A stretch of 11,728 bases of DNA, from positions 1-11,728 of the IMG/VR virus record IMGVR_UViG_2565956624_000004; one strand, 5' to 3'. Shown in pieces: positions 1 to 11,728 of this stretch (the first letter of the stretch is position 1; every line of letters starts with the position of its first letter). Below the pieces are notes generated by a model. The model saw nothing but the letters and a program-made list of their open reading frames with translations, was not told the origin of the DNA and made no database searches. Source of the stretch: a virus. Taxonomy: Duplodnaviria; Heunggongvirae; Uroviricota; Caudoviricetes. The position numbers and the translations under genes were made by a program.

Positions 1-195
1 TCTCATATCAGGGACTTGTTCGCACCTTCCTTAGCACGTTTCTGTGATGCAGCAGCGAAAGCGCAGGACGCTAACAAGCTGCGTGAAATATTTGGCAAAT
101 GCTGGAAATTACTACCGGAAGGATCGGAACATCGAATCAAGGCAAAAGATGTTTATGACATCCGGGTAGCAGAGCTTAACGGGGAGATGGGTTAA
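1..195 (+). CDS. hypothetical protein, 3' fragment (start lies upstream of window)
   Basis: Frame 1 is open from base 1 to TAA at 193-195 (...DVYDIRVAELNGEMG*). The stop overlaps the ssb ATG as TAATG, implying translational coupling. No recognisable motif in the 64 visible residues. Confidence 0.4.
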   Translation, partial: SHIRDLFAPSLARFCDAAAKAQDANKLREIFGKCWKLLPEGSEHRIKAKDVYDIRVAELNGEMG

Positions 196-656
196 TGAGT
201 TTAAATTCAATCACGCTGGGCGGGAATATCGGTAATGATATGGAGGTTCGCTACACACAAAACGGGAAAGCGATTGGTAGTTTTCCGTTAGCTGTAACGA
301 ATGGCTACGGCGATAATAAGCGGACAATGTGGGTCACTTGCCTGGTATTTGGTGAGCGTGCGGAAAAATTAGCGCCACATATCCGCAAGGGTGGAAAAAT
401 AGTGGTAAGCGGTCGCCTGGATGTTCGGCAATATGACCGGAACGACGGCACGAAGGGAACGGCGGTAGAAGTGGCGGTTAACGAATTTGAATTCATGAAC
501 GTTAACCAACAAGGCCAGCAGCAAGGCCAGCAGCAGAAAGCGCCACCGCCTCAAAATAATAACGGGAATGATGTCCCTCCTGATTTCGATGACGACATCC
601 CATTTGCTCCTATGGGGTTACAATATGGCAAAAGCAGGATCTACGCGCTATCTTGA
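195..656 (+). CDS. ssb: single-stranded DNA-binding protein (SSB, OB-fold) with an atypical C-terminal extension
   Basis: N-terminal OB-fold region closely resembles bacterial/phage SSB (ITLGGNIGNDMEVRYTQNGKAIGSFPLAV...WVTCLVFGERAEKLAPHIRKGGKIVVSGRL). Gln/Gly-rich linker (QQGQQQGQQQ) and acidic motif PPDFDDDIPF are present. The ORF reads 17 codons past DDDIPF before its TGA stop. Confidence 0.9.
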   Translation: MSLNSITLGGNIGNDMEVRYTQNGKAIGSFPLAVTNGYGDNKRTMWVTCLVFGERAEKLAPHIRKGGKIVVSGRLDVRQYDRNDGTKGTAVEVAVNEFEFMNVNQQGQQQGQQQKAPPPQNNNGNDVPPDFDDDIPFAPMGLQYGKSRIYALS

Positions 657-918
657 TGCGCCGCCGATTCCGCGAACAAAAGAGCAAGTTCTAAAAGAAG
701 CCCGTGATCAAATAGATCATGGGCTTTTTTTATGCGGCACGGCAGCGGAACGGATGGCAAAAAGATTTAGTGACCTGTACGCAAAACAAATATGGTTCGA
801 CAACTGGCAGGCAAGTTTTTATCCGCTGCAAAGAAAACCGGATATGCACTGGCCTGAATATGTCGATCCACGTATGCGCAAATATCGCGGGCGTATGGGC
901 CAGGTCATTAATGATTAA
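625..918 (+). CDS. hypothetical protein
   Basis: ORF 568-918 in the track; the first ATG is at 625 (MAKAGSTRYLD...), inside the 3' end of ssb in another frame. No motif recognised. Start is uncertain (568 by the ORF track, 625 by first ATG). Confidence 0.4.
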   Translation: MAKAGSTRYLDAPPIPRTKEQVLKEARDQIDHGLFLCGTAAERMAKRFSDLYAKQIWFDNWQASFYPLQRKPDMHWPEYVDPRMRKYRGRMGQVIND

Positions 919-930
919 TGAGGTGTTATC

Positions 931-1155
931 ATGATTGAAGAAAAAGAAGTAGACAAGGAAATTCCTGACGGTCGTGATGAGCTTATTTGTTTTGACGGCG
1001 GCCTGTATGAGTTCGAAACGTCTGCGGGGTGGCACGATAAATGGCCTAAGCCTACTCGCCAGGAATTAAGCGACCGTAAATCATTCGGCGAAGATGCCGA
1101 ACGGCTGGCTAATAACAAATGGCTTGATAAGTTAATTGCGGAGGGTGGCAAATGA
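931..1155 (+). CDS. hypothetical protein (74 aa)
   Basis: ATG preceded by GAGG-type Shine-Dalgarno; acidic N-terminus; no recognisable domain. Confidence 0.5.
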   Translation: MIEEKEVDKEIPDGRDELICFDGGLYEFETSAGWHDKWPKPTRQELSDRKSFGEDAERLANNKWLDKLIAEGGK

Positions 1156-1265
1156 GCTTTGCAAAAATTGCCGCATTGGCTGCGGCGTTGGCTGTCGCGG
1201 CGCTATATCTTAGCGTATCGCTTTATATTACGGTGGCGATCATCAAGCTGATTACTACTATGTGA
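1152..1265 (+). CDS. small hydrophobic single-pass membrane peptide (37 aa)
   Basis: Not in the ORF track (below size cut-off). Strong SD GGAGGG 6 nt upstream of ATG 1152; ATGA overlap with the preceding stop. Translation MSFAKIAALAAALAVAALYLSVSLYITVAIIKLITTM is almost entirely hydrophobic. Confidence 0.4.
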   Translation: MSFAKIAALAAALAVAALYLSVSLYITVAIIKLITTM

Positions 1266-1273
1266 GGTTAATC

Positions 1274-1393
1274 ATGAAAGTCGGTAAGGATATTGTGACG
1301 GTCGCGTTTTGCATTATTTGCTTCCTGTTTGTGGTTGTTTTTTGTGGCGCACTTGCTGCGGTGGTCAACTTTATTTTCAGTGGGTTGCTGTGA
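1274..1393 (+). CDS. small hydrophobic single-pass membrane peptide (39 aa)
   Basis: Not in the ORF track. SD GTGAGGT 5 nt upstream of ATG 1274. Translation MKVGKDIVTVAFCIICFLFVVVFCGALAAVVNFIFSGLL; its stop overlaps the next ATG (TGATG). Confidence 0.4.
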   Translation: MKVGKDIVTVAFCIICFLFVVVFCGALAAVVNFIFSGLL

Positions 1394-1665
1394 TGAAAAC
1401 GTGGGATGCAAAGGCTGGTGATCTTGTCGTATTGCCTGAATATCGTGATGACCCTGGATTGGTTGTACTGAACAAGATGTGCAACGATCTTGAGCGCCCG
1501 CTATTGGTTAAATATCTGGACGGGGAAATCATAGAGCCACGCTACTTTGATGAGATTGAACTAAAGGCCCGCAATGTTCGCGTTAAGCCGTTCCGGGATT
1601 ATGTTGAAGACCACTGGCGGAAATTGTTCGCCGGACTGAATGGGATGTTTGGCGTATGGCTATAA
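1393..1665 (+). CDS. hypothetical protein (90 aa)
   Basis: In-frame ATG at 1393 within track ORF 1309-1665, coupled to the upstream peptide gene by TGATG; the longer 1309 start would overlap two upstream genes. Confidence 0.5.
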   Translation: MKTWDAKAGDLVVLPEYRDDPGLVVLNKMCNDLERPLLVKYLDGEIIEPRYFDEIELKARNVRVKPFRDYVEDHWRKLFAGLNGMFGVWL

Positions 1666-1847
1666 AATTAGTGAAAGTTAAAGACCTGAAAGGCGGCGAA
1701 AAGATCCGCACGTGGTATGGCTATAAATTTATTGTCGCTGCCTTTTCTTTCGGGCCTGTGGGTCAAGTAACATTATTTGATGAAGAAGATGACGAGGTGG
1801 GTAAATGGCATCTTGAGCAATATGTCGAGGTGTTAAATGAAAATTAA
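1656..1847 (+). CDS. hypothetical protein (63 aa)
   Basis: ORF with a 10-nt overlap with the upstream gene; acidic stretch DEEDDE; no domain recognised. Confidence 0.5.
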   Translation: MAIKLVKVKDLKGGEKIRTWYGYKFIVAAFSFGPVGQVTLFDEEDDEVGKWHLEQYVEVLNEN

Positions 1848-2169
1848 ATTCCATAAAGCATATGATAGCGAAACAAACAAGCTATCACTATTTATTGAAT
1901 TCGAACGCCGGATCGTGGTTGTTCCCTGGGCACGGCGCTTTAATGACGCCGCCGGGCGGCGACAATTCGCGGTCGATATGCTGTTACGCGGTTGCGGCCT
2001 TATGCGCCCGCTATCTGATTTAAAACGGATGATGCCTGGATCGTTCGGTCAGATTGATGAAATAGAAATAAGCCAGGAAGAGCTAAAACGGGCGCGTGAT
2101 TTATTCCTTTCAAGTGAAGGAAACCCGTTCAACCCAGAAACTGAAATGAAATGGCATCATCCACTATAA
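1837..2169 (+). CDS. hypothetical protein (110 aa)
   Basis: ORF overlapping the upstream stop, in the same orientation as its neighbours; no domain recognised. Confidence 0.5.
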   Translation: MKIKFHKAYDSETNKLSLFIEFERRIVVVPWARRFNDAAGRRQFAVDMLLRGCGLMRPLSDLKRMMPGSFGQIDEIEISQEELKRARDLFLSSEGNPFNPETEMKWHHPL

Positions 2170-2181
2170 AGGATAAATATC

Positions 2182-2802
2182 ATGAACGACATCAAAACGG
2201 CTTATTCACTCGGCAGCGAAGGCATGTTAATCACTCGCTACACTGAAGACGCAAGTTTTCATGAAGTAGAAATTAAAGATTATCACGAAGTATTGAAAGA
2301 TATGGAAGCTGGCAAGTATGACGCTGATTTGAATCTGGCGTTACAGATTGTTGATATTGTGATGGATGCAAACATCCGCGATTATGTGTCTTTAAGTGCG
2401 GAAGAAAAAACATCGGTAGCTCGCTATGTCTTCTGTCTTGCTTTCGTAAAACGCATGGAAGAGGAATATGGGCGCGTACCAGTGCCGGAAGATATTGACC
2501 CGCTTGCGTTCGGAAGCGCTGTTATCTTCCCGCTTGATGAAAAACGTATGGGAAGCATTGCGCTGTATTCTATGCGTGGCATGATGAAAAAACTCTTTGA
2601 AGTTAAGGTGATGCAGAAATGTATTGATGAAGGCCACAAAGAGGAAGAAATAAAATTTTTCATGCCATTGCTTTACGTTGAAATGGTCGGCAATGATATG
2701 CGTGCAAATGATCTAGGTGTACAGGCGGCTATTGCGGTGCTTAATGATGCACGGAAAAACTCACAGCCAATGCCTGAACCGGAAAAACGTGTACTGCATT
2801 AA
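2182..2802 (+). CDS. hypothetical protein (206 aa)
   Basis: Long ORF with AAGGA SD upstream; acidic, likely cytoplasmic; no domain recognised. Confidence 0.6.
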   Translation: MNDIKTAYSLGSEGMLITRYTEDASFHEVEIKDYHEVLKDMEAGKYDADLNLALQIVDIVMDANIRDYVSLSAEEKTSVARYVFCLAFVKRMEEEYGRVPVPEDIDPLAFGSAVIFPLDEKRMGSIALYSMRGMMKKLFEVKVMQKCIDEGHKEEEIKFFMPLLYVEMVGNDMRANDLGVQAAIAVLNDARKNSQPMPEPEKRVLH

Positions 2803-2806
2803 CAGC

Positions 2807-2883
2807 GTGATTGCGATCACATAAATATACATTTTGTGTTGTGATCGCGTATCCGTTTTGTAAACCGAAATCAAAAGGTTTAC
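2807..2883. promoter_or_regulatory. putative operator/promoter region: inverted 9-mers GCGATCACA (2813-2821) and TGTGATCGC (2840-2848) flanking an AT-rich spacer, plus hairpin GTAAACC-N10-GGTTTAC (2860-2883)
   Basis: Read directly from the 99-bp intergenic gap between the stop at 2802 and ATG 2902. Both 9-mers contain GATC. No convincing -35/-10 pair could be fixed by eye. Confidence 0.25.
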
Positions 2884-2901
2884 GGCACGGAGGAAAACAA
2901 G

Positions 2902-3120
2902 ATGGCCCGCGAATACATGCTTTATTGCGTTGAGGGTGGCGTAGGCCATGATGCCTACGTCGCCGGGAAAGGCTATCCAGCCGATGAAGTGCTTTCTAAT
3001 ATGCACTTCCGGGAAAATGAAAGCCGGGTGTCTGTGTGGAAACGGTGCATTGATGGTATTGAGGTTGTAAGTATCGAACGGTATTTAGGCACGTTTGATT
3101 ACGGTGTTATTGAGGCTTAA
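2902..3120 (+). CDS. hypothetical protein (72 aa)
   Basis: ORF with GGAGGAAAA SD upstream; first gene after the intergenic gap; no domain recognised. Confidence 0.5.
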   Translation: MAREYMLYCVEGGVGHDAYVAGKGYPADEVLSNMHFRENESRVSVWKRCIDGIEVVSIERYLGTFDYGVIEA

Positions 3121-11115: not shown

Positions 11116-11329
11116 GGCAACGGGAAAGCAGATGGCGATCCTGGTTAACGAGGCGCAGTACATGTTTGTCCTTCAGCCGTGGTGTGTTGTAGACCTTAAC
11201 GACAATTGCCGCCGTCACGCTGCGCGGAGCGCTGTAGGCATGAAAGGATGGCAGCCGCGCGACATGGAAAACTATTGTGAATGGAAATTGGTGGCAAAAT
11301 ACACGGTAGACTATAAAGGGGTTTTCTGA
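11078..11329 (+). CDS. hypothetical protein (83 aa; alternative start 11132)
   Basis: ATG 11078 has GAGGT 8 nt upstream but overlaps the preceding gene by 38 nt. An internal ATG at 11132 would avoid the overlap. Two CxxC-like pairs (CVVDLNDNC, and one Cys in ENYCEWK). Confidence 0.4.
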   Translation: MKIRVSYFRAKDKATGKQMAILVNEAQYMFVLQPWCVVDLNDNCRRHAARSAVGMKGWQPRDMENYCEWKLVAKYTVDYKGVF

Positions 11330-11586
11330 TGGAACATTTATATTTTAATGTAATTCAGACTCGCGATCTCGACAAATTCAAAGACGGTAAGGTTTATTGC
11401 GGGGTTCAGATTTACGGTGCGCCTGGTGGTGATGGTGCAATGGCTATAACTGGCGATGATGGTAAGTTATATTTTGCTTATGCAAGCCATATCAATAACG
11501 CCTCTGGCTTGTATATTTATCGCATCGTGCATGATTTCCGTGAGATCGCTGTACTTCATGCTCGCGAAGGTAGTAAACCGGAATAA
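11329..11586 (+). CDS. hypothetical protein (85 aa)
   Basis: ATG overlapping the upstream stop (TGATG); Gly-rich segment GAPGGDGAMAITGDDG; no domain recognised. Confidence 0.45.
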   Translation: MEHLYFNVIQTRDLDKFKDGKVYCGVQIYGAPGGDGAMAITGDDGKLYFAYASHINNASGLYIYRIVHDFREIAVLHAREGSKPE

Positions 11587-11682: not shown

Positions 11683-11728
11683 ATGAACGCTAACGCTAAG
11701 GAAGGTGCGAATAAGCGGGGAAATTCTT
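11683..11728 (+). CDS. hypothetical protein, 5' fragment (continues beyond window)
   Basis: ATG 11683 with strong SD GGGAGGT 6 nt upstream; MNANAKEGANKRGNS... open to the window end. Confidence 0.35.
   Translation, partial: MNANAKEGANKRGNS

Follow-up and report, generated by a model that had tools for sequence, protein, structure and literature searches.

The window, by which we mean the whole 11,728-nt stretch of DNA that was analyzed, carries two tiny open reading frames, ORF1 and ORF2, packed between a gene for a 74-aa protein and a gene for a 90-aa protein. The initial annotation had placed two genes of 37 and 39 codons at 1152-1393, and re-reading the sequence gave exactly these coordinates and lengths. 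The features of the locus are as follows:

931 to 1155, + strand: upstream 74-aa gene, homologue of mEp021 gp22 (phrog_28542), with weak DUF2737 similarity
1140 to 1145, + strand: Shine-Dalgarno motif of ORF1 (GGAGGG), 6 nt ahead of the ATG
1152 to 1265, + strand: ORF1, predicted single-pass membrane peptide gene, 37 aa (ATG at 1152, TGA at 1263-1265)
1264 to 1267, + strand: Shine-Dalgarno motif of ORF2 (GAGG), 6 nt ahead of the ATG and overlapping the ORF1 stop codon
1274 to 1393, + strand: ORF2, predicted single-pass membrane peptide gene, 39 aa (ATG at 1274, TGA at 1391-1393)
1393 to 1665, + strand: downstream 90-aa gene, homologue of mEp021 gp23 (phrog_28396), whose ATG (1393) shares one base with the ORF2 stop codon

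The translation of ORF1 is MSFAKIAALAAALAVAALYLSVSLYITVAIIKLITTM (37 aa) and that of ORF2 is MKVGKDIVTVAFCIICFLFVVVFCGALAAVVNFIFSGLL (39 aa). As had been proposed, a Shine-Dalgarno motif precedes each ORF and the pair is coupled to its neighbors, through an ATGA overlap of the 74-aa gene TGA with the ORF1 ATG and through the one-base overlap at the ORF2 stop. Junctions and start contexts were tabulated for 55 sources, those caught by the first search pattern. The ATGA overlap was seen in 55/55 of them, and the GGAGG core was present in every ORF1 start context. The TGAGG context of the ORF2 Shine-Dalgarno motif was conserved (GGGGTGAG replaced it in two alleles), as was the stop/start overlap at the ORF2 end among relatives. 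Translation would proceed by coupling along the chain 74-aa gene, ORF1, ORF2 and 90-aa gene, and ORF1 and ORF2 would have no promoter of their own. A consensus scan of window positions 1-3000, which could miss weak promoters, detected no promoter-like site within 680 nt of the ORFs on either strand; the sole promoter-like site in this interval was at 1837.

Relatives of the locus were collected from 7 phage records, 11 RefSeq prophages, 39 IMG/VR contigs and 18 metagenome contigs (75 loci), with DNA identity to the window down to ~70%. There were 39 distinct DNA alleles of ORF1 and 44 of ORF2, encoding 27 and 36 distinct proteins, respectively. The initial annotation had named absence of the reading frames from related genomes as a refutation and conservation of the pair in related phages as a check; both frames were intact in all relatives, being stop-free and kept under purifying selection in 76/76 sources. 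Length varied by whole codons only (35-39 aa for ORF1 and 38-40 aa for ORF2), and substitutions were concentrated at third codon positions. None of the other frames on either strand was open in all alleles, and antisense coding was rejected because no antisense frame stayed open in all of them.

Selection was measured as pooled Nei-Gojobori dN/dS. The in-frame values were 0.18 for ORF1 and 0.32 for ORF2, and those of the upstream and downstream flanking genes were 0.18 and 0.20, respectively. The four frames without common wobble positions gave 0.77-1.87. The antisense frame with common wobble positions gave 0.28/0.40, which is the expected shadow of the coding frame, since wobble positions are shared, and is weaker than the sense signal. 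These alignments indicate that (i) ORF1 and ORF2 are under purifying selection equal or close to that of the flanking genes; and (ii) both are genuine, conserved, separately translated genes. Two 48-aa database proteins (P0049 and P0050), seen on one contig each, are frameshifted forms of ORF2, normal over the first 23-28 residues before they switch to the frame overlapping the 90-aa gene start; they are rare disrupted alleles or assembly errors.

That the pair consists of two separate small genes, as initially described, is borne out by strain STEC308 (NZ_CP091020.1; locus L058, 1158-2124), in which a 714-nt KilA-N domain gene occupies precisely the ORF1-ORF2 spacer. Despite this gene, the two ORFs and their ribosome-binding sites are intact, so that the spacer is a module boundary between two separate genes; STEC306 and STEC307 gave the same split BLAST match as STEC308. 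A tandem duplication of one ORF into the other was rejected (hhalign probability of 2%). A split remnant of one longer gene was also rejected, as no fused two-helix form was found among 1.84 billion representative proteins.

Both peptides had been described as almost entirely hydrophobic, with one transmembrane helix each, and the measured properties fit this description. The GRAVY values were 1.83 (ORF1) and 2.12 (ORF2), and the uncharged runs span 26 and 33 residues, respectively. Among the 75 ORFs of 30-60 aa in the six frames of the window, ORF1 and ORF2 are the two most hydrophobic. The best 19-residue windows of both peptides gave negative Hessa-scale sums, with scale values that are reportedly those of Hessa and colleagues from 2005. 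ORF1 is laid out as K5, 26 uncharged residues, K32 and a five-residue tail. ORF2 begins with MKVGKD (K2, K5, D6) and is uncharged from there to its end, with K or R at position 36 in most relatives. AlphaFold2, run with a 39-sequence alignment, modeled ORF2 as one helix over residues 3-38 (pLDDT of 90). Each peptide (~4 kDa) is thus predicted to be essentially one transmembrane helix with short charged ends. Charge balance among the variants weakly favors a topology of both with the N-terminus in and the C-terminus out, the call being weak because charges flank both helix ends. The variants in question are an N-terminal KK combined with a neutral C-tail in one type of ORF1, E32 in another, and an extra R9 in one type of ORF2. 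The lipobox pattern [LVI][ASTVI][GAS]C was found in 0/27 ORF1 and 3/36 ORF2 protein alleles, the latter via the F23S variant alone, and a lipoprotein of the Cor, Llp or mEpimmI Lpp type was rejected for lack of a conserved lipobox.

The C-terminal half of ORF1, YLxxSLYITVAIIKLI (with Y19, S23, Y25, T27 and K32), is nearly invariant, and its N-terminal half is Ala-rich and variable. In ORF2, no protein allele departs from F17, F19, A28, A29 or I34, and F12, C13 and G25 each occur in 35/36, giving a G25xxA28-A29 pattern. The alleles indicate that conservation goes beyond hydrophobicity, to specific polar and aromatic positions within the helix. A one-sided helical periodicity of conservation was not significant (p = 0.13 and 0.16 for the two peptides); a defined binding face is therefore not demonstrated, and the proposal of one conserved helix face was dropped.

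Alignments of the window to seven Escherichia phages (mEp021, mEp010, mEp013, mEp044, mEp515, mEp554 and MagusPhagus) covered 81-94% of it at 87-88% identity, and the window also aligned to prophages in ~35 of 5,426 complete E. coli genomes. The mEpimmI phages are Nus-dependent non-lambdoid temperate coliphages for which a new family has been proposed; most of them reportedly cannot be induced by UV (PMC11893012). These alignments place the window within the early operon of a mEp021-type (mEpimmI) E. coli prophage. It is syntenic with mEp021 gp19-gp25 and beyond, and gene order is identical in the phage records: erf, ssb, abc2 (anti-RecBCD, phrog_656), the 74-aa gene, ORF1, ORF2, the 90-aa gene and further small genes, with dam, ninG, rusA and Q farther along on the same strand. 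The pair sits between the recombination genes (erf, ssb and abc2) and a series of small accessory genes. The mEp021 counterpart of this stretch, in which the two start codons are at 14864 and 14986, is flanked by nutR1 (upstream of gp17, the N-like antiterminator gene) and nutR2 (downstream of gp32) (PMC11893012). The flanking nut sites place it in an early, antiterminated operon under repressor control, and the initial assignment of the pair to a phage early operon agrees with this gene order.

The lysis genes of an intact relative (strain GN05505), for holin, lysozyme and Rz, are located ~13 kb downstream of the pair. A holin, antiholin or spanin role was rejected, as the pair is not in the lysis cassette beside the endolysin. 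The same operon encodes, ~2.5 kb downstream of the pair, a homologue of mEp021 ORF4 'Ipe' (window 3831/3849-4082, + strand). The GenBank note on Ipe states that it 'codes for 4 peptides showing toxicity in E. coli' and that it is also involved in the hemolytic phenotype. When overexpressed, Ipe reportedly causes the release of vesicles that contain HlyE and a change in cell morphology; it is not hydrophobic.

The two ends of the window (1-35 and 11695-11728) are 100% identical to IS5 ends, and the window is an 11.7-kb prophage fragment bracketed by IS5. The left IS5 end truncates erf, which ends at 195 and of which only about the last 160 nt are left. The early operon of this genome may have been severed from both its promoter and the N-like antiterminator gene, and because the truncation lies upstream of the pair, the phage early promoter may not drive this copy any more. 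At the right edge there is an 85-aa ORF (window 11329-11586, + strand). Most relatives stop aligning at ~11331, and MagusPhagus continues to 11585; the right edge looks like the boundary of a variable region just before the IS5 end.

Sequence profiles from Pfam, PHROG, NCBIfam, PADLOC and the PDB gave no match for ORF1 or ORF2; with Pfam and NCBIfam at E <= 1, the sole match was one meaningless 11-bit hit. The PADLOC defense-system models matched neither the peptides nor five neighboring genes. A word-indexed search of 5.8 billion proteins returned just close relatives of 36-48 aa, and the close relatives from the large-scale protein searches came from E. coli and gut samples. An exhaustive ORF2 profile search of 1.84 billion representatives returned 3 clusters, all of the same family. 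With tblastn against 50,697 phage records, ORF2 matched mEp phages only and ORF1 matched nothing, the latter probably due to low-complexity masking. No relative of either peptide was found when one genome from each of 185,579 species was scanned. Every contig recovered in the scans of IMG/VR and metagenomes had the same order of genes, and the longer ones were phage-sized (~52-57 kb); the neighboring 74-aa and 90-aa proteins are equally confined to the mEpimmI group. Across these searches, both peptide families appear restricted to this phage group and present in every member found. A family confined to one phage group allows no functional transfer by homology.

The initial annotation had also claimed that the pair was missed by gene calling. 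For RefSeq this is plausible: among the genomes fetched, ORF1 is called in 0/11 and ORF2 in 1/11 (UMNK88), which leaves a gap of ~238 nt at the pair. The 2018 record of mEp021 omits both ORFs as well. The claim does not extend to GenBank, where six phage records from 2024 (mEp010, mEp013, mEp044, mEp515, mEp554 and MagusPhagus), with PHANOTATE- or Pharokka-style annotations, list both as hypothetical proteins. A literature search by peptide sequence and accession found no mention of the peptides. A further tiny ORF (29-33 aa) lies at window ~2812-2913, between a 206-aa gene and the next gene; it is a PHANOTATE call in mEp010 and mEp554 (loci L002 3213-3314 and L003 3213-3302), and RefSeq has no call there.

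We consider it probable (roughly 60%) that ORF1 and ORF2 encode coupled early-operon inner-membrane micropeptides that make helix contacts with membrane proteins and serve as host-takeover factors. After induction or infection, the peptides would be made along with the recombination and accessory proteins, and both would insert into the inner membrane. There they would engage in sequence-specific helix-helix contacts with host, and possibly phage, membrane proteins, and would act in host takeover on envelope synthesis, division, transport or proteolysis; non-specific membrane disruption would probably not be their mode of action. Specific contacts are preferred to bulk hydrophobicity because Y19, S23, Y25 and T27 of ORF1 and F12-C13, F17, F19 and G25xxA28-A29 of ORF2 are conserved. 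The analysis showed the gene structure, purifying selection, hydrophobic helix character, operon position and presence in every group member found; translation in vivo, membrane insertion, topology, a specific target and a benefit to the phage are what we infer. The initial annotation had listed membrane toxins, division inhibitors and exclusion factors as possible roles, and our results single out none of them.

It is unlikely that the peptides are non-specific membrane toxins which, like TisB, HokB, DinQ and IbsC, form inner-membrane oligomers and collapse the proton-motive force, with shut-down of host metabolism or a tuning of lysis timing as the effect. Their size, single helix and short charged ends fit the description of type I toxins (PMC12648545), and Ala-rich stretches with GxxxA-like small-residue motifs could support self-association. 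Ipe, encoded in the same operon, is an experimentally toxic small protein. However, the conserved polar and aromatic positions exceed what a generic hydrophobic pore helix needs, and early depolarization would harm phage replication. The pair also lacks a separate transcription unit, a 5' UTR, an antisense promoter and an Rfam antitoxin RNA, and no known toxin family in Pfam or NCBIfam (Hok/Gef, Ldr, TisB, Ibs, ShoB and others) was matched.

A bolder version of the takeover reading, which we regard as distinctly doubtful, is that the two peptides form a core, group-defining membrane module, either as a hetero-oligomer or jointly with the 74-aa and 90-aa proteins, that acts on a host inner-membrane machine. 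Candidate targets would be the divisome, lipid II synthesis or FtsH/HflKC. If this were true, the module would represent a class of two-peptide phage effector not described before in E. coli.

Superinfection exclusion is a known role of small inner-membrane proteins, T4 Imm and HK97 gp15 among them. ORF1 and ORF2 could block incoming phage DNA at the inner membrane in the same way, and expression early in the lytic cycle would protect the infected cell, as in T4. We find an exclusion or immunity function improbable, however, since the pair lies deep in a repressor-controlled operon with no promoter-like site, so that a lysogen would be unlikely to express it. For the mEpimmI phages, experiments have shown exclusion by Lpp lipoproteins encoded elsewhere (PMC11893012), whereas the pair has no conserved lipobox and no match to a PHROG exclusion family.

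Many homologues of the 90-aa protein carry the NCBI name 'toxin-antitoxin system toxin subunit', and the genes are always adjacent and tightly coupled by translation, which would fit a toxin-antitoxin-like module of the peptides with the downstream 90-aa gene. Such a module is very improbable. Nothing traceable backs the NCBI name, and searches with Pfam, NCBIfam and PADLOC models left the 90-aa protein without a match. AlphaFold2 gave an unreliable structure for it (pLDDT of 49), too poor for a fold search. The genes belong to one long operon of overlapping genes rather than to an autoregulated two-gene cassette.

The chance that the ORFs are not protein-coding, being fortuitous frames in a spacer or the trace of an RNA function (terminator, leader or antisense transcript), is negligible: although the window sequence by itself folds a little better than shuffles (z = -2.5 on the + strand and -2.7 on the - strand) and ORF1 contains terminator-like hairpins, one of them entered in the mEp021 GenBank record as 'TERM_2; score=85' (record 14882-14898; window 1170-1201), only translation explains the dN/dS values together with 76/76 open frames. 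GCN codons for alanine give rise to the TERM_2 hairpin; no T-run follows it on the + strand, and relatives do not conserve it. An RNA element or terminator was rejected on the weak consensus fold over 28 diverse relatives (just -8.5 kcal/mol, with almost no covariation), on free change of the hairpin bases at synonymous sites, and on the lack of a match to any Rfam family.

ORF1 and ORF2 are an orphan family within a well-known kind, the small hydrophobic early proteins of phages. Annotation systematically passes over such proteins, and targets are known for very few of them. The pair would not surprise a specialist, but it is worth a bench test. The two genes are unusually clean candidates, being universal in their group and under purifying selection about as strong as that of their neighbors, and they are open to genetics in mEp021 on E. 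coli K-12. In the human gut the phage family reportedly equals lambdoid phages in frequency. If the target were found, it might point to a new means of disturbing an inner-membrane process in E. coli; at a minimum, our results argue for adding both genes to the RefSeq annotation of these prophages.

Among known systems, the type I toxins are <60 aa in length, with one transmembrane helix and short extensions (PMC12648545). The peptides resemble TisB, HokB, IbsC, ShoB, DinQ and ZorO in being <60 aa, with one helix and very short charged ends. In contrast to these toxins, the pair has no antisense RNA, no promoter of its own and no 5' UTR, and is embedded and coupled in a long phage operon. The consensus scan of window 1-3000, from which weak promoters could escape, found no promoter-like site on the - strand that might serve an antisense antitoxin.

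Like lambda Kil, ORF1 and ORF2 are small peptide genes beside the recombination genes of a temperate coliphage, in an early operon subject to N-type antitermination. Kil itself is soluble, a helix-turn-helix peptide that acts on FtsZ (PMC3961180, PMC11762379), whereas our pair is predicted to form transmembrane helices, with no sequence similarity to Kil and no Pfam or PHROG match. A separate 'Kil-like protein' is reported in the mEpimmI phages (PMC11893012).

The bacterial small membrane proteins AcrZ, MgrB, MgtS, CydX and YohP, regulators of larger membrane proteins, share with the pair their size, a single helix, the likely insertion route and the fact that they are commonly missed by annotation (PMC12648545, PMC7549839). 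They are chromosomal and stress-regulated and have known partners, whereas ORF1 and ORF2 are phage-borne and belong to one phage group. The 'Cryptic Bacterial Microproteome' describes unannotated intergenic microprotein families of Enterobacteriaceae under purifying selection (67,297 clusters) (PMC11188072). Like these families, the pair consists of short, hydrophobic, domain-less ORFs in RefSeq gaps that are recognized by purifying selection.

PhiNM1 Gp11, a small early-gene membrane protein of a Staphylococcus aureus phage, binds MurG and DivIC (PMC11237401). It differs from the pair in host and phage lineage and has no sequence relationship to the two much shorter tandem peptides (37 and 39 aa). 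By analogy, however, it would be the closest functional precedent for ORF1 and ORF2: a small membrane protein from a phage early operon, with presumed contact to membrane proteins in the course of host takeover.
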